A stretch of DNA of 32,000 bases from Granulosicoccaceae sp. 1_MG-2023 (GCA_030546905.1 JAUOPI010000027.1:1677-33676), one strand, 5' to 3'; shown: positions 7,702 through 25,824, numbered from the stretch's first letter. Numbers and translations are program-made. Notes: generated by a model from the sequence alone, not told the origin.

Positions 7702-7946
7702 CAAAACTCCCGAAATTCGTCCCCGAAACAGCCGTGTTGTTCGACGAACTCGTTGTAGCTTTTGATTGCTGTCCGGTTTTCCTCTACCCATTGGTCAGCT
7801 TTGCGCTTTGCTAACTCTTCTTTCAATGCCCGCTCAAGGGTCGCAGACAGGTTAATGTTCAGAGCGCGTGTCTTTTTCAGCAAATCGCTGTTAACCGACA
7901 AATTTGTGGCTTTTTTTGGTGCGGCTGTGTTGTATAGATCGGCCAT
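7701..7946 (-). CDS. ccdA: CcdA antitoxin
   Basis: The track ORF is 7701..8015. ATG 7946 is preceded by GGAGGC. The sequence MADLYNTAAPKKATNLSVNSDLLKKTRALNINLSATLERALKEEL..WVEENRTAIKSYNEFVEQHGCFGDEFREF matches the CcdA pattern. Its stop overlaps the ccdB ATG by 1 nt (TGATG). Confidence 0.9.
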   Translation of the reverse strand: MADLYNTAAPKKATNLSVNSDLLKKTRALNINLSATLERALKEELAKRKADQWVEENRTAIKSYNEFVEQHGCFGDEFREF

Positions 7947-7983
7947 TGTAGCCTCCGGTTGCGGTAACACACTTAGCAATAGC

Positions 7984-8007
7984 GTATGCGCATGGTCGTG
8001 CGCATAC
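7984..8007. promoter_or_regulatory. Probable ccdAB operator: perfect 9-bp inverted repeat within the promoter spacer
   Basis: GTATGCGCA (7984-7992), tggtcg, TGCGCATAC (7999-8007). On the minus strand it sits between TTGTAT (-35-like) and TACGCT (-10-like), 38 nt upstream of the ccdA ATG. Confidence 0.5.
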
Positions 8008-8013
8008 AAGTGC

Positions 8014-8083
8014 ATTTAACCAAAGGCTGTTGTCGGACGCGCCTATGCTGCGCTCCGGCACGCCGCAAAGCCAAGCGTTAGAC
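8014..8083 (+). mobile_element. Integron attC-type recombination site (70 bp)
   Basis: The site is ATTTAAC (8014-8020) ... GTTAGAC (8077-8083), a perfect RYYYAAC/GTTRRRY pair. Hand-traced pairing: AAC/GTT, a 4-nt unpaired spacer, then GGCT/AGCC, TTG/CAA, CGG/CCG, CG/CG, GCC/GGC. Single bulged bases G8029, T8033 and A8037 are all on the left arm, and the loop is 13 nt. Confidence 0.75.
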
Positions 8084-8681: not shown

Positions 8682-9173
8682 ATGATGGCTTATATCGCTG
8701 AGATGTGGGCGCTTGCGCTGGAAGGCGAGAAGCAGGGTGTACTGTTTTTCGTGGTGATCTACGTGTTGATTGTGTGTCTTTACTCTCTGGTGCGGCAATT
8801 GTTAATCAGGCGCTGGCCGCTGGCCAAAGGTAAGTTGCTCAGTGCGACGGTGGAGAAGTGGGGCGTGGAGGACATTATCCCGGCGGAGCAGGACTATAAA
8901 GCCGCGGCCTTGTATGAGTATGAGGTGGCCGGGCGGCGGTATCGGGGCAGGCGCGTATCGCCCTGGGTGATAGTTGCGTCGTATAACGCCAGAATGCTGC
9001 TTGAGAAGCAGTTATCCGGGGTCAGGATTCATCCGGACGGCTCGGTTGATGTTTTGTACAAGCCCGGAAAGCCACACAAGAGCTATCTGGTAAAGCCGGG
9101 GCTGTTCGGAATGGCGCTGACCTTCGGGATCGCAGTGATACCCTTGATACTCTATCTGAGGGCGTATGCCTAA
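8682..9173 (+). CDS. DUF3592-family membrane protein
   Basis: The track ORF is 8661..9173. ATG 8682 follows GGAGAGGAG. The layout is TM, then WPLAKGKLLSATVEKWG..AAALYEYEVAGRRYRGRRVS..HPDGSVDVLYKPGKPHKSYLV, then TM. This is the DUF3592 arrangement. Confidence 0.7.
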   Translation: MMAYIAEMWALALEGEKQGVLFFVVIYVLIVCLYSLVRQLLIRRWPLAKGKLLSATVEKWGVEDIIPAEQDYKAAALYEYEVAGRRYRGRRVSPWVIVASYNARMLLEKQLSGVRIHPDGSVDVLYKPGKPHKSYLVKPGLFGMALTFGIAVIPLILYLRAYA

Positions 9174-9268
9174 GCGGCACCATAGGGCTCGCCGGCGTTT
9201 ATCTACTTATTTGTTGCACGTTCTGTAGCTAAGGTCTGTCCATTAATGCCTTTACATCAGTAGCGGGG

Positions 9269-9586
9269 ATGAGCTTACTAGTACAGGACTCGCTGACCTA
9301 CACCTCTGCCCGGACCTGTGACGATGGTACGCGGGAGTTGGCAGCCAACGGCATTCCTGATCAGGAAGTAGGCACGTTCCCGAACCCGGGTAACCCCAAT
9401 GTCATTTCCGAACAGAGTGGTTCTGCAAGCTTTTGCCTGGTGCCTTCTGAGACAGGTACCGCGACCGGATCGGGGCGCATACTGCACATCACCGTGTCGC
9501 GAAAATCGGCGCAGCTGCGCCATGAGTTTGCGTTAACACCGGCGCAGCCGGTCGCTGAGTTATTCCCGGCAACGGACAGCGACTGA
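9269..9586 (+). pseudogene. YHYH-protein-like fragment (N- and C-terminally incomplete)
   Basis: LAANGIPDQEVGTFPNPGNPNVISEQ matches the NGIPxHxxGxFPxxGNPNxIxxQ signature of YHYH proteins. There is no signal peptide (an in-frame TAG lies just upstream), and similarity is lost after about 70 aa. Confidence 0.35.
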
Positions 9587-9599
9587 AGCGGCCGTTTAA

Positions 9600-10535
9600 T
9601 TAAGCGCTTTCCTGCGCGGCGCTGACTTCCACGGTGGCGTGGTCGATGGACCAGTGCTCGCGCAGGCGTTGTTTTACGGCTTGCAGTATGGCGTCGCGGT
9701 CAGAAGCGGGTTTAACACTCACTTCCAACGTTGCCATGGGCCGCTCCTCACTGATCATCCAGACATGCACATGCCGGGCGCTGAGCACGCCGGCGACCTG
9801 ACTTTCCAGGTCCGCCGCAATGCCGTCGCCGTCCACGTGCGGCGGTGCCCCTTCGAGCAGAATATTGGCGCTCTCGCGCACCACCGCATAGGCCGAGCGC
9901 AGGATCAGCAGCGCCACCAAAACCGATAGCAGGGGATCGATCGGGGTCCAGCCGCTCAGCATGATGATGATGGCGGCGATAATCGCGGCCAGTGAGCCGA
10001 GCAGGTCGCCCAACACATGCAGTGCGGCGGCGCGCACATTGAGATTTTCCCCGCCGGCGGCAGACAACACCTTAAAGCTGATGATATTGACCACCAGCCC
10101 GCCGACGGCGACCCAGAACATCAGCCCGCCGGTCACGGGCGCCGGTTCGCTGAGGCGGTGCCAGGCTTCGACCACAATCCAGGCGGCGATCACAAACAGC
10201 GCCAGCCCGTTAACAAAGGCGGCCAGCACCGAGATGCGGTCAAAGCCGTAGGTGCGGCGGGGATCTGCCGGTCGCGCGGCCAGGCCGATGGCAATCCGCG
10301 CCAGCAGCAGTGAGGCGGTGTCGGTGAGCATATGGCCGGCGTCGGCCAGCAAGGCCAGCGAACCGGAGATCAGGCCGCCGGCGATTTCGGCCAGCATAAA
10401 GCCGCCGGTCAGCCAGACGGCAATGCCCAGGGCCCGCCGGCGCTTGGCAAGTTGTTCGGGACTGGCGCCGCGTAGCGGCGAGAGATGGCTGTGACTGTGA
10501 TCGTGTGCGTGGTGATGTGAGGCGTGGCCGGGCAT
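9600..10535 (-). CDS. Cation diffusion facilitator (CzcD/ZitB-type) divalent-metal efflux transporter
   Basis: A His-rich N-terminus (HASHHHAHDHSHSH) is followed by ALGIAVWLTGGFMLAEIAGGLISGSLALLADAGHMLTD and AAALHVLGDLLGS. These are the CDF signature helices. Confidence 0.9.
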   Translation of the reverse strand: MPGHASHHHAHDHSHSHLSPLRGASPEQLAKRRRALGIAVWLTGGFMLAEIAGGLISGSLALLADAGHMLTDTASLLLARIAIGLAARPADPRRTYGFDRISVLAAFVNGLALFVIAAWIVVEAWHRLSEPAPVTGGLMFWVAVGGLVVNIISFKVLSAAGGENLNVRAAALHVLGDLLGSLAAIIAAIIIMLSGWTPIDPLLSVLVALLILRSAYAVVRESANILLEGAPPHVDGDGIAADLESQVAGVLSARHVHVWMISEERPMATLEVSVKPASDRDAILQAVKQRLREHWSIDHATVEVSAAQESA

Positions 10536-10630
10536 GGCGTCGTACGTGCGTTTCAGTGAGTCAGATTGCCCACGTTACGGCAGTCTGCGGCAAAAGAAAA
10601 GCGCACGGCGCCCATGCCCGGTTCCGGGGT

Positions 10631-11485
10631 TCAGTCGAAGACTACGGTGCGGTTGCCGTGCACCAGTACGCGGTCTTCCAGATGTGCGGTCAGGCCGCGG
10701 GCCAGCACGGCTTTTTCCACGTCCTTGCCCAGGCGCTCCAGATCACGGTCAGTTTGCGTATGCGACACGTGGATGGTGTCCTGCGCGATAATCGGTCCCT
10801 GATCGAGCTCTTCGGTGACGTAGTGGCAGGTCGCGCCGACCAGTTTGACACCGCGCTGCCAGGCCTGATGGTAAGGCCGCGCACCGACAAATGACGGCAG
10901 AAAGCTGTGGTGGATATTGAGTATCTGATGGCGGTACTTGCTGCACAGCGCCGGCGGCAGAATTTGCATATAGCGCGCCAGCACAATCGTGTCGGCCTTG
11001 TATTGGTCGATCAGGGCCTCGGTTTTGGCAAAACCGGCGGCTTTGTCGTTTTTGTCGACCGGCACATAGTGATAGGGAATACCGTACCATTCCACCAGAC
11101 CGCGGTGGTCTTCGTGATTGCAGATCACGCAGGTGATCTCGCAATCCAGATCCTTGCTGCGCCAGCGGTCAAGCAGATCGCTCAGGCAGTGCGAGCCTTT
11201 GCTGGCCAGCAGCGCGACCTTGCGCGGACTGTTGCCGTCGATGATCTGCCATTTCATCTTAAAGCGTTCGGCGATCGGCGCGAACTGACGGCGCAGCTCC
11301 TCCAGATCAAACGGCAGCGAGTCGGCTTTGACCACCAGACGCGAAAAGAACCAGTTGGCTTCGTGGTCGGAATGGTGGGAGGCTTCAAAGATCCAGCCGT
11401 TGTTGCTGCTCAGCAGCGTCGCAACAGCGGCGACTATGCCCGGCTGGTCAGGGCAGTTGTAGACGATACGGTAGGTGTTTTTCAT
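10631..11485 (-). CDS. purU: Formyltetrahydrofolate deformylase
   Basis: An ACT-like N-terminus (CPDQPGIVAAVATLL) is followed by NIHHSFLPSFVGARPYHQAWQRGVKLVGATCHYVTEELDQGPII, the PurU formyltransferase core. Confidence 0.92.
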   Translation of the reverse strand: MKNTYRIVYNCPDQPGIVAAVATLLSSNNGWIFEASHHSDHEANWFFSRLVVKADSLPFDLEELRRQFAPIAERFKMKWQIIDGNSPRKVALLASKGSHCLSDLLDRWRSKDLDCEITCVICNHEDHRGLVEWYGIPYHYVPVDKNDKAAGFAKTEALIDQYKADTIVLARYMQILPPALCSKYRHQILNIHHSFLPSFVGARPYHQAWQRGVKLVGATCHYVTEELDQGPIIAQDTIHVSHTQTDRDLERLGKDVEKAVLARGLTAHLEDRVLVHGNRTVVFD

Positions 11486-11591: not shown

Positions 11592-12443
11592 TCAGGCGCT
11601 TTTGGCCAGAAACTGCGCGACCGCCGCCGGATCGATCGGCAGATTCAGGTTTTCCACCACGCCGTCCTGACTGATCGCTTCAATGCGTGCGTGATCAGAC
11701 CAATGCAGCAATTGCAGCCAGCCGTTCTCGTCCTCGGTCAGGGCGGTGCAGTGTTCCACCCAGTCACCGTCATTGCAGTAGAGTGCGCCGTCGATCATGC
11801 GTATGCCGGCTTTATGGATATGGCCGCAGATGTAGCCGTCGAACTGCTGTTGCGCGGCGGCGCGGGCAGCGGCGTTTTCGAACTTGGCGATATAGTGTGC
11901 GGCATTGTTCAGGCGGGTCTTCAGCCAGCCGGACAGCGACCAGTAGGGTTTACCGCGCAGGCGTTGGTAGCGATTCATCCAGCGGTTCAGGCGCAGCAGC
12001 GCGCTGTAGCTGTGGTCGCCGATAAACAACAGCAGCTTGTTGTGGCGTACCGCGGAGTCGAATTCGTCGCCGTGACTGACGAAAAAACGCCGTCCGTCGG
12101 CGGCTGTGTGCTCGGCGTTCAGGCGCACGTCGATGCCAAGAAAACGGGTGCCGCTGAAATCGCGTAACAGGGCGTCGTGATTGCCCGGAATATAAGTCAC
12201 TCTGGTGCCGTTTGCGGCCTTGCGGAAAATCTCATTGACCACCGCGCTTTGTTCTTTGCTCCAATGCACGCTTTTTTTCATCTGCCACAGGTCAAAAATA
12301 TCGCCGACCAGATACAAATGCGCACAGTCGCTTTGCTGCAGGAAATCCAGCAGATAGCCGGCCTTGCAGTTTTTGGTGCCGAGATGGACGTCAGAGATAA
12401 AAATGCTGCGAAACTTCAGTTTGCTCATCGGGGGCGAACTCAT
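11592..12443 (-). CDS. Calcineurin-like metallophosphoesterase of the LpxH/PlcP group; the context favours a PlcP-like phospholipase C
   Basis: The motif series is FISDVHLG, LVGDIFD, IPGNHD, VSHGDEFD, CGHIHKAG. It lies immediately downstream of btaA-btaB on the same strand. Confidence 0.75.
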   Translation of the reverse strand: MSSPPMSKLKFRSIFISDVHLGTKNCKAGYLLDFLQQSDCAHLYLVGDIFDLWQMKKSVHWSKEQSAVVNEIFRKAANGTRVTYIPGNHDALLRDFSGTRFLGIDVRLNAEHTAADGRRFFVSHGDEFDSAVRHNKLLLFIGDHSYSALLRLNRWMNRYQRLRGKPYWSLSGWLKTRLNNAAHYIAKFENAAARAAAQQQFDGYICGHIHKAGIRMIDGALYCNDGDWVEHCTALTEDENGWLQLLHWSDHARIEAISQDGVVENLNLPIDPAAVAQFLAKSA

Positions 12444-12517
12444 GGCGAATGGGGCTTAGCCTAGCGCGGGAAAATGACAATCCTGCGTCAGTCCTGTGAA
12501 CACTGCGTGACCGGACC

Positions 12518-13228
12518 TTATTCGCCCGGCATCCATTGCAGTGTCGGTGCAGTCGGATCAGGCTTGCGGTAGCAGGCAATCAGCGCATAGCGGCCGGGCA
12601 AGTGCCTGAGTTGCAGTTGCCCGCCTTGGCGGGTCAGGCTTTGCAGAAAGCCCGGCAGGGCCGGCTCCGGATGTACGTGAAAACGTTTCAGCCAGCCGAG
12701 CAGCATTGTGCGGAACCAGGCCGGCATGCTTTGCTGGTCGGAAAAATCCACCACATGCAGGCAGCCGCCCGGGCGCAACACGCTGATGGCCTGCTCGATC
12801 GCAGCCTGCCAATCGGGAATCATCGACAACACGTAGGAAAACAGCACATGGTCAAACGGCTCATCACGCCCGAAGCTGGCCGGTGTGACCTGTTGCGCAA
12901 GAGCCTGCTGCAGACGCACGTTGCCGGTGTAGAGCCGGTGCCGGCGCAAATTGCCAAGCGCTGTATCGAGCATGGCCTGCGAGGCGTCGATACCGAACAG
13001 CTCGCTGCCGGGATTGTGGTAGGCAAGCTTGCAAAGATTACGCGCCGTGCCGCAGCCCATGTCCAGCAGGGTTTCGTCGGTATCCAGATCGATTTCCCTG
13101 AGCAGACTGTCGCGACCGAGCAGGTAGTACTTGCGCGACCAGTCGTAGACATAGCGTTGCAGGCGGTACTGCGCATCCATTTTTACGGCGGTATCGGCAC
13201 CGCCGTGATCATCCGTGCTTGAGAACAT
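12518..13228 (-). CDS. btaB: Class I SAM-dependent methyltransferase, BtaB-like (DGHS to DGTS N-methylase)
   Basis: The track ORF is 12518..13297. ATG 13228 overlaps the btaA end by 20 nt; the alternative is ATG 13180. Motifs: MDAQYRLQRYVYDWSRKYYLLGRDSLL, then LLDMGCGTARNL (SAM motif I). Confidence 0.75.
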   Translation of the reverse strand: MFSSTDDHGGADTAVKMDAQYRLQRYVYDWSRKYYLLGRDSLLREIDLDTDETLLDMGCGTARNLCKLAYHNPGSELFGIDASQAMLDTALGNLRRHRLYTGNVRLQQALAQQVTPASFGRDEPFDHVLFSYVLSMIPDWQAAIEQAISVLRPGGCLHVVDFSDQQSMPAWFRTMLLGWLKRFHVHPEPALPGFLQSLTRQGGQLQLRHLPGRYALIACYRKPDPTAPTLQWMPGE

Positions 13229-14426
13229 ACAAGTGGAATCCGCCGTAAATGGCCGAACGGTCGCGACGGAAAAACGCGCGCGAGGCCGCCGGGTCATAAG
13301 AGAATTGTTTGGTCAAGCTGTCGGGCAGTACCGATTCAAGCGGTGATTCAGCCGCTGCGGTACGGAAGATGATCCGGCTGCCGGGCCGTCCGGTGCGGAC
13401 AATTTCCTGCCATAGTTCAATCAGTGCGGCATCGGACATCCAATCCTGCGCATCGAGAAACACAAAGCGATCCAGTGAATTGGCCGCGCGGCTTTTCAGA
13501 TGTGCGGTCAGGGTTGTGTTATGGGTGTCGATCTTGTGCAGCTGATCGCGGATCGTGGTGTAGTTCTCTTCGCGCAGATAATCCGGTACGGCCTTGCGTT
13601 TCTCGTGGTCATAGCTGTGGCTGAATGCCTGCCAGGCGAAGTAGTTATCGCTGACAGGAAAATCGCAGGCCAGACGTTCGACGCGCTCACGGAACTGCGC
13701 GAGCAGATTGCCTTCGCGTTTCATGGCCTCGTATTGCTGCGGCGGTATGCCAAGGCTGAAGACCGACATCGGCAGCTTACCCAGCAGGCGCACCAGCGTG
13801 TTGTCGAAAAACGGGCGGATTTCGCGTCTGAAGATCTCGGCCTGTTCCGCCTGGCTGGTGGCGCTCAGCAAGCGCTGCGGCTGATAGTCGGTGCAGCGGG
13901 CAATAAAATGCAGAAAGCGCATATACCAGCCGAAACGGGTATGCCGGTACAAACCGTCGCGGAAAAGGCTGATACGACGCCGGCCGTTAAAACGCCGTCC
14001 GTCCCAGAAGGCGCGCAGTTCAGGGTCGATCGCATCGCGGATATAGCGCCGGTACAGACGCGGATTCGATTCGCAGTCGCCGTAGCCGAAAAAATCATAA
14101 AAGGCGTCAAAATCCGGCAGCTGTTGCATGGCCGCGATTTTCAGCCGCGTCAGTGACAGATGATAGGGATTCAGGTCCACGGCTGTAATACGCGCCGGCG
14201 ATGCGGTCAGATAGTTCAGCACATTGCAGCCGCCGGAGGCGATGGTCAGCACGTCGCTGTCTTCGCGCAGCTGCAGGGCTTCCATGTCGATGCGCGGGTC
14301 TTCCCAGATCTGGTTGTAGATAAAGCTGTTAAACCAGATGCGGAACAGGCGTTGTTGCATGCCCCGCAAACTGGCCAGCTTGTTTTGTTGGACCGCGCTT
14401 TTCAGAACGTGTGAGGCACCGGTCAT
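13209..14426 (-). CDS. btaA: DUF3419 / BtaA-like SAM:diacylglycerol 3-amino-3-carboxypropyl transferase
   Basis: The track ORF is 13209..14450. ATG 14426 has GGAGAAATCCCT upstream, whereas 14450 has no RBS. FIYNQIWEDPRIDMEALQL..DVLTIASGGCNVLNYL is the DUF3419 signature. Confidence 0.82.
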   Translation of the reverse strand: MTGASHVLKSAVQQNKLASLRGMQQRLFRIWFNSFIYNQIWEDPRIDMEALQLREDSDVLTIASGGCNVLNYLTASPARITAVDLNPYHLSLTRLKIAAMQQLPDFDAFYDFFGYGDCESNPRLYRRYIRDAIDPELRAFWDGRRFNGRRRISLFRDGLYRHTRFGWYMRFLHFIARCTDYQPQRLLSATSQAEQAEIFRREIRPFFDNTLVRLLGKLPMSVFSLGIPPQQYEAMKREGNLLAQFRERVERLACDFPVSDNYFAWQAFSHSYDHEKRKAVPDYLREENYTTIRDQLHKIDTHNTTLTAHLKSRAANSLDRFVFLDAQDWMSDAALIELWQEIVRTGRPGSRIIFRTAAAESPLESVLPDSLTKQFSYDPAASRAFFRRDRSAIYGGFHLYVLKHG

Positions 14427-14470
14427 AGGGATTTCTCCGGATGTGGTCATCGGCGCAGTCTAGTCAGCGC

Positions 14471-14492
14471 ATATGTCGCCACGGTGACATAT
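14471..14492. promoter_or_regulatory. 22-bp near-perfect palindrome in the btaA / DUF1284 divergent intergenic region
   Basis: ATATGTCGCC AC GGTGACATAT pairs at 9 of 10 positions and lies 45 nt upstream of btaA ATG 14426. Half-sites TGTCGC/TGTCAC resemble Pho-box hexamers but are inverted, not direct. Confidence 0.35.
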
Positions 14493-14640
14493 ACGCCGAT
14501 ATTCAAAGCGCCGATAAGCTTGCTGCTGCACAGGCGCGGCGGTTTCGCGTTAGACTGAGCGGCCCGTGGAGGATTGCTGCCGATAATGAACCCAAACCAC
14601 CTATTGTTGCCGTCCCCGGCCGGTATGCGGAGGCTCTGCT

Positions 14641-15090
14641 GTGCCTGAGCCTGTACGTTTCCGGGGCCATCATTTGCTGTGTATGCTCAGCTACCAGTCG
14701 CAGGGGTATACGCCGGCGTTTGTGGCCCGTTTTGATGAGGCTGTGGAGGCGCTGAACCGGGGCGCCTCGCTGGTGCTGGAATCCGGGCCGGATATGCTGT
14801 GCGAGACCGTGCTCGGCGAGCCTGATTGCCATTGTCACAATGCCAGTGTCAGACAACGCGACGCGCTTGCTTTACACGCCGTGGGACAGGCGCTGGGCCA
14901 GACTCTGGCGCCGGGAACAAGCCTGTCTCTGACAGCGGAGCAGGTGTGGCAGCTGCGGCAGGGTTTTGCCGATGGCAGTTTGCGGGCCGCCTGCGAGGGT
15001 TGTCAGTGGGCGCGCCTGTGCACGCGCATCGCGAGGCAGCAATTCCCCGGTGTGCGTTTATTTCCGGCAGCTCCGGCGAGCAAGAAGTGA
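14641..15090 (+). CDS. DUF1284 domain protein (Cys-rich, unknown function)
   Basis: A GTG start lies 7 nt after GGAGG. FRGHHLLCMLSYQSQGYTPAFV, then DMLCETV..EPDCHCHN..CEGCQWARLC matches the DUF1284 pattern (R.HHLLC..GY...F......C..C). Confidence 0.75.
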   Translation: MPEPVRFRGHHLLCMLSYQSQGYTPAFVARFDEAVEALNRGASLVLESGPDMLCETVLGEPDCHCHNASVRQRDALALHAVGQALGQTLAPGTSLSLTAEQVWQLRQGFADGSLRAACEGCQWARLCTRIARQQFPGVRLFPAAPASKK

Positions 15091-16565
15091 CGTCGCCGCC
15101 CAGCTTGCTCGCTGCAATACAGGCTCAGGCCCGGGCGCAGCCGCACAAAGTGGCCATGTGTTGTGCCGGCCGTTCACTCAGCTATGCGGACTTGTACCGG
15201 CGTATCGCCATGCTGCACGGGCATTTGCAGCTCGCATTGCCGCCGCGCTCGCCGGTGGCGCTGTGTTCGCGTGATCCCTTGTGGCTCAGCAGCGTGTTTC
15301 TGGCCCTCGGTGCCGGCAATCACAATGCGTTGATTTTCAACCCCGCGTGGCCGCAGGCGATGCAGCGGGCTGCCTGGCAGCGTCTGCAGCCGGCGCTGTG
15401 GCTGGGCGATGAGTTGCCAGCCTGGGCGCATGGCCATACACGTCATTCATTGGAGCCGGCCCCGGACGGGCATGGCGGCGCACTTGTCAAACTGCAGGAG
15501 GCGGTGGCCCGGCGCGATACCGGGGCCTTGTTCTATACCGGCTTCACTTCCGGCTCGTCGGGTGTGCCGAAGGGCTTTTCGCGGCATGAACGCAGCTGGC
15601 TGGCCAGTTTCGCTGCCGATCAGCGGATCTTCGGCTTCAGCGCCGGTCAGGTGTTTTATTGTCCGGGCAGTCTGGCTCATTCGCTGTTTCTGTATGCGGT
15701 GATGCGCGCGCTCTATGCCGGTGCCACGGTGCAGATCAGCGATGAGTTCCGGCCGGCCCGGTGTCTGGCGCAGCTGCGCGCCTCGGCCGATGTATTGTTT
15801 GCCGTACCCACCCAGTTGCAGGCCCTGGCCGGGGCGGCACGTGAGCCCGTGCCGGGCTTGCGAAAAATCCTTTCATCCGGCGCCAAGCTGCACAGCGGTG
15901 CATTAGCCGCCATCAACAAGGCGTTTCCGCAGGCGCAGGTCTGCGAGTTCTACGGCAGCTCGGAGCTCAGCTATATCTCGGTCGCCGGCCCGGGGGCACC
16001 GCGCGGCTCGGTGGGTAAGCCTTTGCCGGGCGTGCGCGTGTCCGTCTGCAACAGCCGGGGAGAAGCATTGCCGGCCGGGGAAAAAGGCCTGATCTATGTG
16101 GACAGTGAGCTGGTTTTTGAAGGCTACGCCGGACCGCAGGGCGGCACTCATCGCGAGGCTTTAGCCGTCTGTCAGGCGGGGATTTCCTGCCGTGATATCG
16201 GCTATCTGGATACGCAGGGGAATCTGTTTATTACCGGGCGTGCCGATCGCATGATGCTGGTTGCAGGGCGCAATGTGTATCCGGAAGAAATCGAACAAAT
16301 ACTACAAGCCCATCCGGACGTGCATCAGGTTGCGGTTTTGCCGCAGGCCGATCAATTGCGTGAAACCCGGCCTGTGGCTCTGCTCAATACAAGTCCGGAT
16401 GTTTGCCGGAAAACCCTGTTGGCCTATTGCCGCCAACACCTGCCTGCGTGGTCGGTGCCGACCATGTATTACCGTGTCCGGCATTGGCCGCTGACGGTTT
16501 CGGCCAAGACCGATTTTCCGGCCCTGCAGGCTTTGCTGGCGCAGGGCAGGCTGGAGCCCTTATGA
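15087..16565 (+). CDS. AMP-dependent synthetase/ligase (acyl-CoA synthetase family)
   Basis: The track ORF is 14826..16565. GTG 15087 overlaps the DUF1284 stop (GTGA). Motifs: YTGFTSGSSGVPKGF (AMP-binding core), EFYGSSELS, GYLDTQGNLFITGRADRMMLVAGRNVYPEEIE, SAKTD. Confidence 0.85.
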   Translation: MTSPPSLLAAIQAQARAQPHKVAMCCAGRSLSYADLYRRIAMLHGHLQLALPPRSPVALCSRDPLWLSSVFLALGAGNHNALIFNPAWPQAMQRAAWQRLQPALWLGDELPAWAHGHTRHSLEPAPDGHGGALVKLQEAVARRDTGALFYTGFTSGSSGVPKGFSRHERSWLASFAADQRIFGFSAGQVFYCPGSLAHSLFLYAVMRALYAGATVQISDEFRPARCLAQLRASADVLFAVPTQLQALAGAAREPVPGLRKILSSGAKLHSGALAAINKAFPQAQVCEFYGSSELSYISVAGPGAPRGSVGKPLPGVRVSVCNSRGEALPAGEKGLIYVDSELVFEGYAGPQGGTHREALAVCQAGISCRDIGYLDTQGNLFITGRADRMMLVAGRNVYPEEIEQILQAHPDVHQVAVLPQADQLRETRPVALLNTSPDVCRKTLLAYCRQHLPAWSVPTMYYRVRHWPLTVSAKTDFPALQALLAQGRLEPL

Positions 16566-17698
16566 ACCCCTGTTATATCGCGGCAGCGCGGCGTACGGCG
16601 GTCGTTCCGGCCGGCGGCGCTTTTTCCCTGTGCGAGGTTTATGATCTGGGCGCCACGGTGATCAAAGCCTTGCTCAGCGAGCTGGCACTGGAGGCTGAGC
16701 AGGTCGATCTGGTGATCGCCGGCAATGCGCTTTACGGCGGCGGAAACCCGGCGCGGATGGCGGCATTGGCGGCCGGCTTGCCGGTTTCCTGTCCGGCCAT
16801 GACACTCGACACCCAGTGTGCCGGTGGGCTGGATGCCTTGCATATGGGGCGGGCGCTGATCGGATCGGGGCAGGCCCGGGTGGTGATTGCCGGCGGTCTG
16901 GAGAGCTGTTCACTGGCGCCGCGCCGACAGCACCGGCCGCGTTCACCGGCGCAGGCGCCGCAGTTTTATACGCGGCCGGCATTTTCGCCGGATGCGGCCG
17001 ATGATCCGGACCCGGCTGTGGCGGCGCACGCTGTGGCGAAAGCCTATGCGCTGAGCCGTGCGGATCAGGCGCGTTTTGCCTGCGACAGCCACCGCAAGGC
17101 GCGCGCCGCGCAAGCGCGTCTGCGTGCAGAGATCGTCAGCTTCAACGGCGTCAGCGACGATGCGTTTACGCGTGTTCTCAGCGAGATGCTTTGCGCCAGG
17201 GCACCGCTGCTGGCCGGCGAGGATGAGTTTGCGATCAGCAGCGCCTGCACGGCAGTCAGCGCTGATGCGGCGGCATTTGTGGTGTTGATGTCGGAGGCGG
17301 CGCTGGCGCGTGTCTCGTCTGATGCAAGCCCGGTTCGCATCGCGGGAACTGCGCAGGCGGCTGTGCGCAATGCTGCAATGCCTTTGGCGCCGGTGACGGC
17401 GAGCCGCGCTGTGCTGGAACAAGCCGGACTTGCAATAACTGATATGGCTGTGGCCGAAGTGATGGAAGCGTATGCTGCGCAGGCCATGGCCTGTATCCGC
17501 GATACGGGACTGCCGCCGGCGCAGCTTAACCGCGGCGGCGGAGCGTTGGCACGCGGTCACCCGATCGGCGCTTCCGGGGCGGTCAATGCGGTGCGATTGT
17601 TTCATGAGCTGCAAACCGAAGCGCCCGCCAGCTATGGCTTGGCGACGATTGCCGCGGCCGGCGGGTTGGGCTCGGCTCTGATCGGGCAGCGGCAATGA
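16562..17698 (+). CDS. Thiolase-family protein with a partly degenerate catalytic set
   Basis: The track ORF is 16403..17698. ATG 16562 overlaps the ligase stop (ATGA). Motifs: LDTQCAGGLDAL (nucleophile Cys region), VIAGGLESCS, GGGALARGHPIGASG. However, VMEAYAAQ replaces NEAFAAQ, and IAAAGGLG replaces C-I-G-G-G-Q-G. Confidence 0.85.
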   Translation: MNPCYIAAARRTAVVPAGGAFSLCEVYDLGATVIKALLSELALEAEQVDLVIAGNALYGGGNPARMAALAAGLPVSCPAMTLDTQCAGGLDALHMGRALIGSGQARVVIAGGLESCSLAPRRQHRPRSPAQAPQFYTRPAFSPDAADDPDPAVAAHAVAKAYALSRADQARFACDSHRKARAAQARLRAEIVSFNGVSDDAFTRVLSEMLCARAPLLAGEDEFAISSACTAVSADAAAFVVLMSEAALARVSSDASPVRIAGTAQAAVRNAAMPLAPVTASRAVLEQAGLAITDMAVAEVMEAYAAQAMACIRDTGLPPAQLNRGGGALARGHPIGASGAVNAVRLFHELQTEAPASYGLATIAAAGGLGSALIGQRQ

Positions 17699-18120
17699 TC
17701 TGTCTGTCTGAGGCCGACGCGCTCGCTTCGCTGCTGGGGCGCGACTTGCATTGTCCGAAGCCGCTTTGCGCCAGCCACGCTGCGCTGAGCGCTTTTCTGG
17801 CTGTATCGCAGGACCGCCAGCCAATTCATGATCCCGCAGGTGAAGCGCTGGTACCGGCCAATCTGTTGCTGAGTTTGCTGCCTTGTGTCTTGCAGAGTGC
17901 GCTGCAGGTCGGCGGCCACAGCGCCTGCTACACCGTCGGCTATGACCGGATACGGTTTCGCCGTCCGGTGCGGGCAGGGCAGGTGTTGCAGGTCCGCTTC
18001 AGTGTGCAGCAGGTCAGGCGCCGCGCCGGGGGCGTTTATGCAAGCCTGGATATAGCGATTTACGATGAACAGGGGCGCGACACGCTGACGCTGCGCCAGC
18101 GTGATTACTACCTCGACTGA
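17695..18120 (+). CDS. MaoC-like (R-specific enoyl-CoA hydratase-type) hotdog-fold protein
   Basis: The ATG overlaps the thiolase stop (ATGA). VSQDRQPIHDP follows the hydratase-2 motif S-G-D-x-N-P-I-H, with Asp and His retained. The C-terminal hotdog beta-sheet pattern is RFRRPVRAGQVLQVRFSV. Confidence 0.72.
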   Translation: MICLSEADALASLLGRDLHCPKPLCASHAALSAFLAVSQDRQPIHDPAGEALVPANLLLSLLPCVLQSALQVGGHSACYTVGYDRIRFRRPVRAGQVLQVRFSVQQVRRRAGGVYASLDIAIYDEQGRDTLTLRQRDYYLD

Positions 18121-19539
18121 TTACAGCGCATAGCCGATGCGCAAAGCGCCCCAGTGGCGTCCGCGCACCAGAATCGGCGCTGACACATCCTTCATCAGGA
18201 CAAACTCGCCGCCGCCCATATCGCGGCGATAGGTCTGCAGCAGAAAGGGTTTGCGGTTTTGCGCCGCCGCCAGGCCGGTGCGGTCGTTAAACAGCCGGCG
18301 GTTGCGGCAATGGGCGTTGTTCCAGACCCGGTCGTGGCCGGGCGGGCGTGAGAACTTGCGGTTGTGGGTCGGCAGATAGCCGTTGCTGTCGACCGCCGCG
18401 CAGAAGGCGACCTTTGTATCCATCTCCAGAATGCTTTCCTGCACATCGGGGAACAGCCGGTCAGTCAGGTCGGTAAACGGGGCCAGGTATTGCTGCGGAT
18501 CGGTGCCGGCAATTGGCCGGTACTGATGGCTGAACAAGGCCTCGGCGCCGATCATGCCTTTGTCCAGCGCCTGTTCAAGGCGGGCTGCCAAGGCGCCGGC
18601 GCCGTCCACGACTGCCTCGATAAACGGACTGTCGGATGTGCGCCGGCCGGAACCGGCCACCAGCCCGATCATGTTTTCGGTCTCATCGAGCAAGCGCCGG
18701 ATACGCGCTTCGGCCTGGGCCAGATTGTCCACGGTCTGGCCCAGGCCGCCGACCATGGTCCCCAGTTCGCTGTTGATCTGTGCACACTGGCGGCGCGAAT
18801 CGGCTGCAGCACCGGAGATATCATCGACCTGTTGATTGATGTGTTCGATGGAGTTGTTGAACATATCCACGGTGGTGCTGATCACCGCCACGCCGCGGGT
18901 GGTTTCCTCGGCCAGATTGACCGAAGTATCGGTGGCGCTTTTGAGGGTTTGCAGACTGCCGCTCAGGTCGTCGATGGCCGAATCGATTTTGCCGGTGGCT
19001 TCGCCGGTGGCCATGGCGAGGCTTTTCACTTCACCGGCGACCACCGAAAAACCGCGTCCGGCCTCGCCGGCACGGGCCGCCTCGATGGTGGCGTTCAGGG
19101 CCAGCAGATTGGTCTGCATGGCGATGCCCTCGATATTGGAGGACATGGTGGTGACCTGGCCGAGGTTGCCTTCAATTGAGCCGAGCTTCTCGCCGACCAG
19201 CGACACCGAGCTGGTCAGCTGGCCGATACGCTCGATGGCGCTATCGATGGTGCTGGCCGATTCCAGTGCGCGGCCGGCCACATCGGCGGTGGTTTCCCGG
19301 GTGCTGCTGCCGGCGCGGTCAATCTGTTCGACGGCCGAGGCCAGTGATTGGATATAGGCGGCCAGATTATCGAAAGCCGATTTCTGCTCACGGACGTAAT
19401 TGACGATGACTTCCAGGTTGCCCATGACATCGGCCATTTCCAATCCGAGCATTTCCACCCGATGCAATATGTCGTCGGCAAAGCCGTCGATAGAGTCCTG
19501 ATGTTCCTGCTGAGCCGCAATCTGTCGCTGTGCGTTCAT
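18121..19539 (-). CDS. Soluble methyl-accepting chemotaxis protein with a C-terminal Cache/PAS-like sensor domain
   Basis: The track ORF is 18121..19641. I prefer ATG 19539 (AGGA 7 nt upstream); the alternative is 19554. [34 protein letters not shown] is the MCP hairpin tip. I see no TM segment. The C-terminal 150 aa ([48 protein letters not shown]) look Cache-like. Confidence 0.82.
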
Positions 19540-19708
19540 TGACGATCCTGTCATATGGCCGGCGCAATCCCTGACCGGCGGTAAACTCACCACAGTCTGT
19601 GGTAGATAAAAATACAAACGGCCGTGTCGCTTGTGTGACACATGTGACGCCGTATCTTGTCACGTTTTGTATCGGAACTGCGTCACAAATCTGAAGCGCT
19701 GTTTGCCG

Positions 19709-19738: not shown

Positions 19739-19867
19739 TCGCGATTCACAAAGCGCGCCTGTCATGCGGCGCCGGTCTGCGGGGTTGGTCGCGATTTTGC
19801 AGCGTAAAGGCTTCTACAAAGCCGTATGGCCGGCCGCCACGGAAGCGCGCTGGCCGGAGAGAGACAG

Positions 19868-20584
19868 ATGAAAAACACGACCCGACTGATTGCCGCGCTG
19901 CTGCTGGTGTTGCCGGCGCTGCCCTCGTACGCCAATGAAGGTAAGGCAGAAGGGCATGTGTCGATTCAAACCCGCGCCAATTACAGCGTGTCGACGGTGC
20001 CGGAGAATATGACGGTGGAGGAGAAAAAAGCGCGTTTTGCACAACTGTTGCTGCCGCCGCTGAAAAAAGTCCATGCCGAGCTTGAAGGCACCTATGAAAT
20101 CGTTCGCGGCAAAATCTCCCGCGGCGACCGGAAAGGCCTGGATAAGCTGAAAAAATACTATGAAGTTGAATCCGACGAAGCGCTGCTGGCGGCGCTGAAA
20201 CCGCATCCGGTCAGCATCGCCTTGGCGCAGGCGGCCATGGAGAGCGCCTGGGCGACGTCGCGCTTTATCCGTGAAGCCAATAATGCCTTTGGTATCTGGT
20301 CATTCAAATCCGACGAGCCGCGCATTGCCGCAGGTAAAACCCGTGGCAGCAAAACCATCTGGCTTAAGCGCTACGACTCGCTGGAAGAGTCGGTACGCGA
20401 TTTTTACAAGCTGATTGCCCGCTCGCCGGCCTTCCGTGAATTCCGCCAGTTGCGTCTGCAAACCGATGACCCGCACCAGCTGGTCACAAAACTTCACCGC
20501 TATTCCGAAAAGGGCAGTGATTACGGACGCTCCTTATCGGCGATTATCCGGCAGAACGATTTCACCGCTTTCGACGCCGGTTAG
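19868..20584 (+). CDS. Bax-like glucosaminidase-domain protein (secreted)
   Basis: The track ORF is 19826..20584. ATG 19868 follows GGAGAGAGA. The signal peptide is MKNTTRLIAALLLVLPALPSYA. ALAQAAMESAWATSRF..NNAFGIW is the glucosaminidase (FlgJ-C/Bax) motif. Confidence 0.8.
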   Translation: MKNTTRLIAALLLVLPALPSYANEGKAEGHVSIQTRANYSVSTVPENMTVEEKKARFAQLLLPPLKKVHAELEGTYEIVRGKISRGDRKGLDKLKKYYEVESDEALLAALKPHPVSIALAQAAMESAWATSRFIREANNAFGIWSFKSDEPRIAAGKTRGSKTIWLKRYDSLEESVRDFYKLIARSPAFREFRQLRLQTDDPHQLVTKLHRYSEKGSDYGRSLSAIIRQNDFTAFDAG

Positions 20585-20702
20585 GCCTGCGCGCCCGCCG
20601 CTGGCGGTAAAACGGTTTAGCGCAGCCGCTTGCGGCCGATAGGGTGGTAAAGCCTGCCTGCCCAAGGGCGGGCTCCGGAGCATCGCAAGCAGGTAGAAAG
20701 TT

Positions 20703-21221
20703 ATGGTCAAATCCGCGTCGTCGCTTTTATCCTTTCCCAAACTGCCCCTGGGGCCCAGACAAGAGGCCGTCAGCGGGCCGGTCGAACTGCGCACCCGCAG
20801 TTTCAGTATGAGATTGCCGCCGGGCTGGCAGATCCAGAGCCGTGAAGACGGCGCACGGGGCCATTCCGGCAAGCAGGACCGTTTGATTGTCGACCGCTAT
20901 GTGCTGCAGGCCAATGATAATGCCGGCTACCGCGCCGCCATTGAATCCTGCCGGCAGCTCTTGCACGAGAGCATGCTCGAAGCGGCCAATGATGCGCAGT
21001 ACGAGGATGACGGCGGCTTCGAAATTATTCATTTTGCCCCGGCTCTGGTGGTCGAGCGCCATCAGGCCCGTCAGCGCGACGGCAAGGGCTTTCTGTGCCA
21101 GTACAGCATCGTCTGCCGCGACTGCATGATCCGCATCCGTTACGAAGGCCCCGAAGACGTGCGCGCCCAGCAGAGTCAGCTCGAGGAAGCCATCCGCGGC
21201 ATCATCTGGCACGACGACTGA
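20703..21221 (+). CDS. Hypothetical protein
   Basis: A 172-aa ORF with genome-typical codon usage and no recognisable motif. The start is uncertain. Confidence 0.5.
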   Translation: MVKSASSLLSFPKLPLGPRQEAVSGPVELRTRSFSMRLPPGWQIQSREDGARGHSGKQDRLIVDRYVLQANDNAGYRAAIESCRQLLHESMLEAANDAQYEDDGGFEIIHFAPALVVERHQARQRDGKGFLCQYSIVCRDCMIRIRYEGPEDVRAQQSQLEEAIRGIIWHDD

Positions 21222-21259
21222 GTCGCGTCCGCGCTTGTCAGGCGCCCGTCGCTGCGGGC

Positions 21260-21727
21260 ATGCTTGGCGGCATGTTAAACCCTACCATTGCGTATGTGGG
21301 CAGTGAGACCGTATGGCCGCTGCGCCATGCGGTGTTCTTTGCCGGAAAGCGCCTGAGTGCGGCCCGTCTGCCGGCCGACAAGGAGGCGCTGCACCTCTGC
21401 GCCGTTCTGCCCGTTCCCGATACTGATCTGTCCGCCGCGGCCGGGGTGATTGCCGTCGCTTCGGTTTATCCGCAAGCACAGGCACCGGCCCGCCTGCGCT
21501 TTCTTGCCACGGACCCGCAATGGCGCCGTCAGGGCCTGGCCCTGCGACTGCTCGGTTTTTTGTTTGCCGATCCGCCGCCGGCGCTGCGCCACGGACTTGT
21601 GTTGCATGCCGAAAGCACACTGCGTCCGCTTTATGAACAAGCCGGACTGCACACCGACGGTGCTGCATACCGGCGCAGAAACCGCGACTATCTGGTGTTC
21701 CGCCGCGGGCCGGACTTGCCGGCCTGA
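21260..21727 (+). CDS. GNAT-family N-acetyltransferase
   Basis: The track ORF is 21095..21727. ATG 21260 (or 21272) avoids overlap with the upstream gene. LRFLATDPQWRRQGLALRLLGFL is the acetyl-CoA-binding motif A (R-x-x-G-x-A), and YEQAGL lies near the C-terminus. Confidence 0.7.
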   Translation: MLGGMLNPTIAYVGSETVWPLRHAVFFAGKRLSAARLPADKEALHLCAVLPVPDTDLSAAAGVIAVASVYPQAQAPARLRFLATDPQWRRQGLALRLLGFLFADPPPALRHGLVLHAESTLRPLYEQAGLHTDGAAYRRRNRDYLVFRRGPDLPA

Positions 21728-21785
21728 CATGCGGGCCCGGCTGCGTGCTTTGTATACTGGCCTGCAGACCCACAGGAGAACTGAG

Positions 21786-22910
21786 ATGCGCAGATTAGCC
21801 GTGTTGCTGGGCTTGAGCCTGGCCCTGGTGGACAGTGCCGCGGCGCAGGCTGCGGTATCGGCCGCTGCCGCCGACGACAGTCTGAAGGTCGAGATCCTCG
21901 CCGACCGGCTCGATCACCCCTGGGGCCTGGCCTTTTTGCCGGACGGGCGCATGTTGGTCAGCGAGCGCGGCGGTACGCTTTTGTTACTGAGCGCGGACGG
22001 GCGCAAACGCGAGACGGTCGCCGGCGTGCCGGCGGTGGCCAGCGGCGGGCAGGGCGGCTTGCTGGATGTGGCGGTGGACCCGGACTTTGCCGATAACCGC
22101 CGGGTCTTTCTCAGCTATGTCGGTGCGGACCGGGCGGGGCGTCGCGGTACCGAAGTATTGCGCGCTGAACTGAGCGGAAATGCGCTGACAGACAGCCGGG
22201 TGATCTTCCGGCTTGAGCCGAAAACCAACAGCACACGCCACTTCGGCTCGCGGCTGGTGTTCGGCCCGGATGAGACGCTGTTTATTACGCTCGGTGACCG
22301 TGGTGACAAAGATCGCGCGCAGGACCTGAACGACCACGCCGGCTCGCTTATCCGTATTAACACCGACGGCAGCGTGCCGGATGACAATCCCTTCGTGAAT
22401 CAGGCCGGGCGCCGGGCTGCGATCTTCAGCTACGGGCACCGCAATATCCAGGGCGCGGCCCTGCATCCGCAAAGCGGTCAATTGTGGCTGCACGAACACG
22501 GGCCGCAGGGCGGTGATGAGCTCAATATCGCCCGTGCCGGGCGCAATTACGGCTGGCCGGTGATTACGTACGGGGTCAACTACGGCATTGGCACGCAGAT
22601 CGGTGAAGGCACAGCGAAAGCCGGTATGGAGCAGCCTTTGTACTATTGGGTGCCGTCGATTGCGCCGTCGGGTATGACGTTTTACAGCGGCGATTTATTT
22701 CCCCGCTGGCGTGGCGATCTGTTTGTCGGATCGCTGAAGTTCCGCACCTTGGTGCGTCTGAGCCTGAACGGCACGCAGGTGATCGCCGAAGAGCGCCTGC
22801 TGAGTGAGCAACTCGGCCGTATCCGTGATGTGGTGCAGGGGCCTGACGGCGCGTTGTATGTGCTGACCGACGAAGCGCGCGGGGTGTTGGCGCGTTTGTC
22901 GCCGCAATAG
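21786..22910 (+). CDS. PQQ-dependent soluble sugar (aldose) dehydrogenase, YliI/Asd-like
   Basis: The track ORF is 21450..22910. ATG 21786 follows AGGAGA and is followed by a signal peptide. Motifs: HPWGLAFLPDGRMLVSERGG, GGLLDVAVDPDF, SYGHRNIQGAALHP, HEHGPQGGDELN, NYGWP. Confidence 0.9.
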   Translation: MRRLAVLLGLSLALVDSAAAQAAVSAAAADDSLKVEILADRLDHPWGLAFLPDGRMLVSERGGTLLLLSADGRKRETVAGVPAVASGGQGGLLDVAVDPDFADNRRVFLSYVGADRAGRRGTEVLRAELSGNALTDSRVIFRLEPKTNSTRHFGSRLVFGPDETLFITLGDRGDKDRAQDLNDHAGSLIRINTDGSVPDDNPFVNQAGRRAAIFSYGHRNIQGAALHPQSGQLWLHEHGPQGGDELNIARAGRNYGWPVITYGVNYGIGTQIGEGTAKAGMEQPLYYWVPSIAPSGMTFYSGDLFPRWRGDLFVGSLKFRTLVRLSLNGTQVIAEERLLSEQLGRIRDVVQGPDGALYVLTDEARGVLARLSPQ

Positions 22911-24627: not shown

Positions 24628-25824
24628 ATGAATATTGATTTTACCGAAGAAGAACTGGCCTTCCGCGAGGAGGTGCGGCAGTTCTTCCGCAACGAAATGC
24701 CGGCTTCGGTGCGCGATAAGGTGGCCCGGGGTTGCTGGCCGGACAGGGAAGATCATGTTGCCTATCAGCAGGCGCTCTATGAAAAAGGCTGGGCAGGCGT
24801 GAACTGGCCGGTCGAATACGGCGGCACCGGCTGGAGCGCGGCTCAGCGCTATATCTTTTACAACGAAGCGGCCGCTGCGGATGCGCCGCGCATTATACCG
24901 TTCGGTCTGGCGATGGTCGGTCCGGTCATTTACACCTTCGGTAATGATGAGCAGAAAGCGCGTTTTCTGCCGGATATTCTGGCCAGTCGCGTCTGGTGGT
25001 GTCAGGGCTATTCTGAGCCCAATGCCGGTTCGGATCTGGCCGGCCTTAAAACCCGCGCAGTGCGCGATGGCGCTCATTACATCGTCAACGGCAGCAAAAC
25101 CTGGACGACACTGGGCCACTATGCGGACTGGATTTTCTGTCTGGTGCGTACAGACGATTCGGGCAAAAAGCAGGAAGGTATCAGCTTTTTGCTGATCGAT
25201 ATGACAAGCCCGGGCGTCACTGTAAAGCCGATTATCACGCTCGACGGACGCCACGAAGTCAATGAAGTCTTTTTCGAAGACGTGCGCGTACCGGTGGAGA
25301 ATCTGGTCGGCGAAGAGGGCAAGGGCTGGACCTATGCCAAGGTGCTGCTGACCCATGAGCGCACTAATATTGCAGGCGTGGCTCCGTCCAAACGGCGTTT
25401 GGCCAGGCTAAAGGCCTTGCTTGCCGATCCGCCGGCCGGTGTGCCGTCTTTGCGTGAAAACGCGGTTTTTATGGCGCGTTTGGTCGAAACCGAAATCGAG
25501 CTGACCTCACTGGAATACACCGAGTTGCGGGTGCTTTCGGCGGTTGCGACCGGTAAGGCGCCGGGGCCGGAGTCGTCGATCCTGAAGATCAAAGGCACGG
25601 AAATTCAACAGGCGCTGGATGAGTTGTGGCTGGAAGCGGCCGGCATTTACGCCATGCCGTTTGTGCCGGAGCAGTATCAGGCCGGTTTTGAGGGCGAATC
25701 CATCGGGCCGCATTTCGCCCCCAGTATGGCGCCGCTGTATTACAACAACCGTAAGGTGACGATTTACGGCGGTACTAACGAGATACAGAAAAACATTATT
25801 GCCAAGCAGGTGCTGGGCTTCTGA
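24628..25824 (+). CDS. Acyl-CoA dehydrogenase (catalytically complete subunit)
   Basis: Motifs are WCQGYSEPNAGSDLAGLKTRAV, WTTLGHYADW and a C-terminal IYGGTNEIQKNIIAKQVLGF. The last carries the canonical G-T-x-E-I-Q catalytic-Glu motif. Confidence 0.9.
   Translation: MNIDFTEEELAFREEVRQFFRNEMPASVRDKVARGCWPDREDHVAYQQALYEKGWAGVNWPVEYGGTGWSAAQRYIFYNEAAAADAPRIIPFGLAMVGPVIYTFGNDEQKARFLPDILASRVWWCQGYSEPNAGSDLAGLKTRAVRDGAHYIVNGSKTWTTLGHYADWIFCLVRTDDSGKKQEGISFLLIDMTSPGVTVKPIITLDGRHEVNEVFFEDVRVPVENLVGEEGKGWTYAKVLLTHERTNIAGVAPSKRRLARLKALLADPPAGVPSLRENAVFMARLVETEIELTSLEYTELRVLSAVATGKAPGPESSILKIKGTEIQQALDELWLEAAGIYAMPFVPEQYQAGFEGESIGPHFAPSMAPLYYNNRKVTIYGGTNEIQKNIIAKQVLGF

Follow-up and report, generated by a model that had tools for sequence, protein, structure and literature searches.

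A stretch of 32,000 nucleotides (nt) from Granulosicoccaceae sp. 1_MG-2023 (GCA_030546905.1, JAUOPI010000027.1:1677-33676), hereafter the window, carries between positions 14641 and 18120 an operon of four genes. As the neighbourhoods of its relatives suggest, this operon most likely encodes an uncharacterised step of biotin uptake or salvage. Its features are as follows.

14629-14633, plus strand: Shine-Dalgarno-like GGAGG, read from the sequence, 7 nt 5' of the GTG of the DUF1284 gene
14641-15090, plus strand: DUF1284 gene, 149 amino acids, GTG start, leading the operon
15087-16565, plus strand: gene for an AMP-forming acyl/aryl-CoA ligase of the ANL superfamily, 492 amino acids from a GTG
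16562-17698, plus strand: thiolase-family gene, 378 amino acids
17695-18120, plus strand: gene for a single-domain MaoC-type hotdog protein, 141 amino acids

The four plus-strand open reading frames (ORFs) lie exactly at the coordinates given by a first-pass annotation made from the sequence alone. They are joined by three overlaps: GTGA at 15087-15090 between the DUF1284 and ligase genes, ATGA at 16562-16565 between the ligase and thiolase genes, and ATGA at 17695-17698 between the thiolase and hotdog genes. The GTG start of the ligase, which overlaps the DUF1284 stop, agrees with an alignment of 24 homologues, and no terminator-like or promoter-like site above chance was found within the operon. 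We then compared these junctions with those of 80 ligase loci from species-representative genomes, retrieved with a ligase alignment at 35-42% identity; the window's own genome was not included. The thiolase gene directly follows the ligase gene in 77 of the 80, and in 72 of 74 loci the end of the ligase gene runs into the start of the thiolase gene, with a 4-nt overlap in 68 and a 1-nt overlap in the other 4. Because of this recurrence, coupling is far above chance, as expected from the initial description of one tightly coupled operon. The four-gene operon is real and, as that description also stated, holds no dehydrogenase gene.

The other two genes are less constant. The hotdog gene was found in 36/80 related loci; the thiolase/hotdog junction is an overlap in 20 of 38 loci, with gaps of at most 18 nt in the others. 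DUF1284 adjoins the ligase or is fused to it in only 6/80. Adjacency is confined to Granulosicoccaceae (L012, L013 and L016) and to an Azospirillaceae metagenome-assembled genome (MAG; L054), and fusion occurs in Rhodospirillales (loci L031 and L039; proteins P0028, P0035 and P0036); in L007, a DUF1284-ligase fusion lies at 9001-10908. The closest relative, the metagenome contig L004 (61-63% identity), has DUF1284, ligase and thiolase genes with the same overlaps as the window, and a PhoU-like gene upstream. From these frequencies (77/80, 36/80 and 6/80), the ligase/thiolase pair is the core of the module, the hotdog protein a frequent addition and DUF1284 an occasional one. The idea that DUF1284 belongs with the other genes is thus borne out by its fusion to the ligase in P0028, P0035 and P0036, while the synteny survey does not sustain the four-gene set as a general unit. 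Thioesterase-ligase-thiolase trios of Rhizobium megaplasmids were considered as members of the same module and rejected: they form a more distant paralogous group, at 31% identity and without bioMNY. In these trios (L090, 5539-8653; L096, 4513-7671), the genes for a 4HBT-type thioesterase, a ligase and a thiolase lie beside a zinc-dependent alcohol dehydrogenase gene.

The genes in front of the ligase provide a context of biotin transport, which had been missed by the earlier reading of the sequence and is decisive for the interpretation. The biotin energy-coupling factor (ECF) transporter is encoded by bioM, bioN and bioY. In 55 of 76 evaluable ligase loci (72%), one or more of these genes directly precede the ligase gene in the same orientation, and 51 of these upstream sets contain all three. 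In two further cases they occur elsewhere within the locus. The bioMNY labels came from BLAST queries and were cross-checked by independent annotation: BioY (PF02632), ABC_tran and CbiQ are among the precomputed Pfam calls of L007, L009 and L097, and on an Azospirillum lipoferum plasmid a gene with the RefSeq label "biotin transporter BioY" directly precedes the AMP-binding and thiolase genes. No homologue of bioA, bioB, bioF, bioC or bioD was found within 10 kb in about 90 loci, which links the module with biotin transport and not with biotin biosynthesis.

In Alphaproteobacteria (Bradyrhizobium, Afipia, Xanthobacter, Microvirga, Methylocella and Curvivirga), the operons of this kind follow the order bioMNY-ligase-thiolase, with or without a MaoC gene. 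They encode orthologues of the ligase (35-42% identity), the thiolase and the hotdog protein, and share with the window the overlapping junctions and the MEAF/Y and IAAAGG substitutions of the thiolase. They differ in that their genes stand behind the biotin ECF transporter, mostly without DUF1284, whereas in the window DUF1284 leads and no transporter is present. In three loci (L082, L083 and L084), two tandem copies of bioY precede the ligase-thiolase genes, a hint that one of the BioY paralogues may take up a compound that is not biotin. In Ramlibacter, a bioM-bioN-bioY-DUF1284 set lies about 4 kb away from the ligase gene. The same operon slot is occupied by DUF1284, by a nitroreductase domain or by a PF03692 CxxCxxCC protein; because these three unrelated putative redox or metal proteins replace one another across lineages, a redox step in the pathway is suggested. 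The nitroreductase domain is fused to the ligase at 7001-9100 of L097, and the Cys-rich CxxCxxCC protein is encoded before bioY in Curvivirga (L009-L011; about 6269-6931 in L009).

DUF1284, too, points to biotin uptake. The window protein matches PF06935 with 50 bits against a cut-off of 25, over profile positions 1-102 of 102. R8, H10, H11, C14, D51, C54, C65, D74, C118, C121, W123 and C127 are conserved among its homologues, as is H64, giving a total of six Cys and two to three His. The Cys/His motifs that the first-pass annotation had picked out in this Cys-rich protein are therefore family features, and DUF1284 probably binds a metal or an Fe-S cluster. AlphaFold2 modelled it with confidence (pLDDT 90.7); compared with the PDB by Foldseek, the model gave no meaningful match (best E 0.69, TM 0.19), and a phmmer search of the PDB returned no solved relative by sequence. 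An hhalign comparison with the Curvivirga PF03692 protein revealed no relation. The family comprises about 1,700 representative clusters at 50% identity, nearly all of them stand-alone proteins of 130-170 amino acids, and the longer members yielded no informative fused domains. Full-text literature searches found no mention of DUF1284, PF06935 or COG3543.

Where, then, does DUF1284 stand when it is not linked to the ligase? We looked up nine loci of stand-alone DUF1284 genes (from Brucella, Mesorhizobium loti, Devosia, Aestuariibius and several metagenome contigs), whose products are 41-53% identical to the window protein. In 9/9 the gene lies directly after bioY; a 4-nt overlap with bioY is seen in several, and a GntR/FCD regulator gene comes before it in several. 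A metagenome scan added 80 further DUF1284 loci, 73 of them with enough upstream sequence, in which the upstream neighbour is bioY in 48 and a BioR-like GntR gene in 8. TTATMKATAA, which is reportedly the BioR box, has 12 exact matches in 1.6 Mb of fetched loci, nine of them a short way in front of bioY-DUF1284 or the GntR gene, and it occurs within 150 nt upstream of 25 of the 48 metagenome bioY genes that precede DUF1284. The bioY-DUF1284 operons of Rhizobiales, Rhodobacterales and Ramlibacter, with their BioR box, carry a DUF1284 that is 41-53% identical to that of the window and shares all its conserved Cys and His. As two-gene operons they differ from the window in having no ligase, thiolase or hotdog gene, and in placing DUF1284 after a solitary bioY, often with a 4-nt overlap. 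Judged by gene neighbourhood, these data show that DUF1284 belongs to the same functional neighbourhood as the biotin uptake module.

The ligase matches the N- and C-terminal AMP-binding domains, PF00501 (139 bits) and PF13193 (41.5 bits), and its TSGSxGxPKG motif (T154-G163) and C-terminal catalytic Lys, K474, do not vary among 25 homologues. The closest relatives with a solved structure are adenylation domains of non-ribosomal peptide synthetases (NRPS), MenE and oxalate-CoA ligase, which are not informative about the substrate. The best NCBIfam model for the ligase is PRK07638, at 281 bits, with the next model 114 bits lower at 167; for the thiolase, the best specific model is PRK06690, at 218 bits, with the next at 190. 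We take these two models to be those of Bacillus YhfT and YhfS, respectively. Literature searches on PRK06690/PRK07638 and on biotinyl-CoA returned nothing useful.

In Staphylococcus aureus, the yhfS-yhfT operon, which encodes homologues of the thiolase and the ligase, is bound and repressed by BirA upon biotin (PMC6391492; PMC7235819), with half-maximal repression at about 10 nM biotin (PMC6391492). A 2024 review places these genes downstream of a bioY gene in Bacillus subtilis and S. aureus (PMC11089781). No function is assigned to yhfT-yhfS in PMC6391492, PMC7235819 or PMC11089781. Judged by composition and best models, the window ligase and thiolase appear to match the yhfT-yhfS pair. In both cases a ligase gene adjoins a thiolase gene, with a 4-nt overlap in the window, and the pair of B. 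subtilis and S. aureus is associated with bioY, as are the relatives of the window (55/76) and not the window itself. Furthermore, yhfT-yhfS is under BirA/biotin repression, whereas the window has no BirA operator or BioR box, and a DUF1284 or MaoC gene, both present in the window, is not reported for the Firmicute operon in PMC6391492, PMC7235819 or PMC11089781. The first-pass annotation had stated that it knew of no described pathway with such a composition. No characterised pathway fits, so that this part stands; the core of the operon, by contrast, has a precedent in the composition of yhfT-yhfS.

Another possibility is that the module spares biotin instead of acting on it: at low biotin and low acetyl-CoA carboxylase activity, it would activate and process exogenous fatty acids and so bypass malonyl-CoA-dependent synthesis, being merely co-regulated with uptake. 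The yhfT-yhfS genes, or vraAB, are indeed described as fatty-acid genes (PMC7235819, PMC5640590, PMC11730646), and the closest relatives of the ligase family are acyl-CoA ligases and MenE. However, co-regulation by itself does not predict that DUF1284, a partner of BioY, should be fused to the ligase, that the genes should be inserted directly behind bioMNY in more than 50 species, or that tandem bioY genes should precede the ligase in L082-L084. The module also has no complete set of genes for beta-oxidation or elongation. We consider biotin sparing unlikely.

The thiolase-family protein constrains the chemistry. It matches Thiolase_N and Thiolase_C (PF00108/PF02803), scores 253.8 bits with TIGR01930 (cut-off 240.55) and aligns end to end with solved thiolases at an E value of about 1e-50. 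We looked for the four canonical catalytic residues and found two: the nucleophile Cys89 (in TQC) and His348 (in RGHPIGASG) are present, while Asn316 is replaced by Met (MEAY in place of NEAF) and Cys378 by Ala (AAAGG in place of CxG). The same pattern, DTQCC, MEAF/Y, RGHPIGASG and IAAAGGLGSA, is found in 79/79 orthologues, so that the protein was rightly called atypical. The second catalytic Cys acts as the base for Claisen condensation and thiolysis. Since Asn316 and this Cys are lost in all orthologues, the protein is not an ordinary Claisen thiolase; with its remaining Cys and His, the family can probably still form an acyl-enzyme. Compared with canonical thiolases such as the biosynthetic thiolase of Zoogloea ramigera (PDB 1dlu/1m4s; E about 1e-49), the window family shares the fold family, Cys89 and His348, and differs by the Asn316 to Met and Cys378 to Ala replacements, by a shorter loop domain and by a conserved Arg before GHP, in RGHPIGASG, where canonical thiolases have Leu. 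More distant ligase-linked thiolases of Azospirillum and Rhizobium keep NEAF and have also lost the second Cys, which is a Gly in the thiolase of the Rhizobium trios.

These residues bear on two other explanations. The first-pass annotation had likened the operon to the FadD/ChsH/Ltp system of steroid side-chain degradation, in which case the thiolase-like protein would act as a retro-aldolase on the hydratase product. The two systems do have in common that a ligase and a MaoC-type hydratase go together with a thiolase-fold protein and that a dehydrogenase is missing, and the loss of the Claisen base would suit an aldolase. However, Ltp2, an SCP2-type aldolase, has an SCP2-type thiolase-like fold without the nucleophile Cys and works with a DUF35/ChsH2 partner. 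The window protein belongs to the thiolase I/II family and not to the Ltp/SCP2 type, as its PF00108/PF02803 matches and its TIGR01930 score above cut-off indicate, and its nucleophile Cys and His are strictly conserved. Moreover, no DUF35/ChsH2-type partner is present, over half of the related operons lack the hotdog protein, and the context in relatives is biotin transport, not sterol catabolism. The analogy does not survive this comparison, and a steroid-like reaction is scarcely credible.

Alternatively, the module could supply a precursor of biotin: the ligase would activate pimelate or a longer odd-chain dicarboxylate such as azelate, and the hydratase and the thiolase, together with housekeeping dehydrogenases, would trim it to pimeloyl-CoA for BioF. 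The enzyme types suit such a beta-oxidation-like trimming, and the Arg of RGHPIGASG could, in our view, bind an omega-carboxylate. On the other hand, the thiolase lacks residues that efficient thiolysis requires, homologues of bioF, bioA, bioD, bioB and bioC are missing within 10 kb in about 90 loci while the transporter adjoins in 72% of the loci, and the linkage of DUF1284 to a solitary bioY is left unexplained. A. lipoferum, which carries the module beside bioY, is described as a biotin-requiring species, a further point against precursor supply. Even with the co-repression of yhfT-yhfS with the bio operon (PMC6391492) in its favour, we find this explanation unlikely.

The hotdog protein of the window falls just under the MaoC_dehydratas cut-off (24.2 bits against 27), while 14 of 16 orthologues match Pfam MaoC, with a best E value of 1.3e-17. 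F34, D40, H45, P54, P63 and F88 are invariant in the family and include the hydratase Asp/His pair (SQDRQPIH), D40/H45, which had been noticed in the window protein and proved constant among its orthologues. The family profile matches Mycobacterium tuberculosis Rv0130 (2c2i) with an E value of 7e-19. This single-domain (R)-hydratase is the closest solved relative and has the same Asp/His motif; it differs in being stand-alone and in another genomic context, and the window protein is divergent (phmmer E 0.24 by itself). A single-sequence AlphaFold2 model reached a pLDDT of only 49.5 and was not used. From these motifs, the hotdog protein is probably an (R)-specific enoyl-CoA hydratase/dehydratase.

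A ligase, an (R)-hydratase and a thiolase match steps of the classical bacterial degradation of the biotin side chain, and the module could thus catabolise or detoxify what enters through BioY, by beta-oxidation of the valerate side chain, be it that of biotin or that of a toxic analogue. Expression alongside the transporter would suit such a gatekeeper, and a substrate such as the CoA ester of alpha-dehydrobiotin would need no acyl-CoA dehydrogenase. Yet the operon encodes no 3-hydroxyacyl-CoA dehydrogenase and its thiolase has lost the base, and induction under biotin limitation in Firmicutes argues against the degradation of biotin (PMC6391492). This explanation is distinctly improbable.

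Taken together, we propose that a widespread module, one that goes along with biotin uptake genes, has in this operon been detached from the transporter and expanded. The proposal builds on the observed gene identities, conserved residues and coupling, on the synteny with bioMNY and bioY, and on the BioR boxes of relatives. We estimate at about 0.5 the probability that the module acts directly, in the cytoplasm, on biotin or on a biotin vitamer or biotin-like carboxylic acid imported by BioY. From this context we infer a substrate, a reaction direction, a role for each protein, a purpose and, in this organism, a mode of regulation. DUF1284, the partner of BioY elsewhere, would bind or redox-process the imported molecule, and the ligase would turn the side-chain carboxylate into an acyl-adenylate and then into a thioester. 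The thiolase-like protein, made in a fixed ratio with the ligase, would accept the acyl group on its Cys, aided by the His, and would transfer or slowly cleave it instead of carrying out the normal thiolase reaction, an outcome that is probable because the protein has no Claisen base. The MaoC hotdog protein may hydrate or dehydrate a 2-enoyl or 3-hydroxy intermediate. The purpose would be a better biotin supply under scarcity, by salvage, remodelling or retention. The full version of this scheme is a route of biotin salvage or remodelling via a thioester of biotin or a vitamer, with a ligase for the valerate side chain, a thiolase-fold enzyme that uses only Cys and His, and a novel-fold Cys6 DUF1284 metalloprotein that partners BioY; we put it forward tentatively, as possible and still rather doubtful.

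Several observations weigh against a role in biotin metabolism. Neither bioY nor bioM nor bioN was found in the 32-kb window, which also has no BirA-like operator and no BioR box, so that the link to biotin rests on relatives that are 35-63% identical; it is comparative and comes from those relatives, not from the window itself. Among these relatives, no transporter adjoins in 19 of the 76 evaluable ligase loci, and 17 of the 73 metagenome DUF1284 genes stand in unrelated contexts (valS, the superoxide dismutase gene sodB, glnA). The model scores are below the equivalog cut-offs, at 281 against 518 for PRK07638 and 218 against 498 for PRK06690; the ligase is for this reason related to the PRK07638 family and not an equivalog of it. 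Enzymes of these types, a ligase, a hydratase and a thiolase, might just as well have fatty or dicarboxylic acids as their substrates.

The region upstream of the operon and the genes on either side were also inspected in the window. The features in question are the following.

11592-14450, minus strand: betaine-lipid-type operon encoding a DUF3419/BtaA-like protein, a BtaB-like S-adenosylmethionine (SAM) methyltransferase and an LpxH-like metallophosphoesterase, divergent from the operon studied here
14467-14496, no strand: palindrome GCGCATATGTCGCC-AC-GGTGACATATACGC, between the divergent btaA-like gene and the DUF1284 gene
18121-19641, minus strand: chemoreceptor gene, signalling domain at residues 124-291, followed by about 200 C-terminal residues without a Pfam match

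The palindrome has 17-nt arms that are 82% complementary. Its core is unique in the window, yet 28 of 100 shuffles give at least one match, and it is unlike both the BirA operator and the BioR box; it may be an operator, of this operon or of btaA. A search of 14451-14640 for BirA-operator-like half-sites, allowing at most 4 mismatches in total, found nothing, TTATMKATAA does not occur in the window, and an Rfam scan of the window gave no matches. Likewise, no palindrome shared by the regions upstream of 50 bioMNY-ligase operons stood out from the background.

The divergent betaine-lipid operon opens a further alternative, a lineage-specific re-use of the module that is unrelated to biotin, for instance in membrane-lipid remodelling with btaA/btaB. 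The palindrome in the shared intergenic region and the missing bioY of the window could be read in this way, as could a btaA homologue (67% identity) that is likewise divergent from the ligase gene in L028. By contrast, L013, from the same family-level lineage, shares the downstream neighbours at 62% identity and has other genes upstream, and L004 has its PhoU-like gene at this place. Because both carry other upstream genes, the adjacency to btaAB is most simply shared descent, and lipid re-use is highly improbable. The divergent btaAB neighbour that the first-pass annotation pointed out is present in the window, but it recurs in only one related MAG, L028. There, the 67%-identical BtaA is encoded at 3-566 in a second gammaproteobacterial genome, with no DUF1284 gene between it and the ligase gene.

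Downstream, the stop of the hotdog gene abuts that of the convergent chemoreceptor gene (18118-18123); no base lies between them, and there is no terminator. The glucosaminidase and GSDH genes at 19826-22910 are found in the same order in the Granulosicoccaceae MAG L013, with 62% identity, while identity to L013 is as low as 39-45% for the operon proteins, indicating that the operon diverged faster than its neighbours or was replaced. In the organism of the window, the module probably stands alone, apart from the transporter. About 8 kb downstream of the operon, at 25799-29033, lie genes for an acyl-CoA dehydrogenase, a crotonase-type enoyl-CoA hydratase and an IclR regulator; they supply enzyme types that are absent from the operon, and this adjacency was not seen in relatives. 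Further away, a CcdB toxin gene is found at 7384-8015 (Pfam E 4e-32); the antitoxin could be encoded by a small ORF upstream of it. The region 2441-7121 encodes an MptE-like/Maf-type protein, a hexapeptide-repeat transferase and two GT4 glycosyltransferases, and is possibly a cluster for glycans or for the glycosylation of flagellin.

The uptake of biotin and its control have been studied in depth, and in S. aureus the biotin protein ligase serves as a target for antibacterials. Within the biotin regulon sits a ligase/thiolase pair whose function is unsolved; the pair was known already, and what is new here is its four-gene, transporter-less variant. The pair appears to span a range from Firmicute-type operons to more than 50 proteobacterial species, in which it is an appendage of bioMNY. 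The thiolase of this module is systematically without the Claisen base, and an orphan family, DUF1284, joins the same neighbourhood. The window and its relatives make the roles of yhfT-yhfS and of DUF1284 directly testable, since cultured and genetically tractable carriers exist in Bradyrhizobium, Xanthobacter, Azospirillum and Bacillus. If true, a biotin-thioester salvage route would also explain the yhfT-yhfS members of the BirA regulon.

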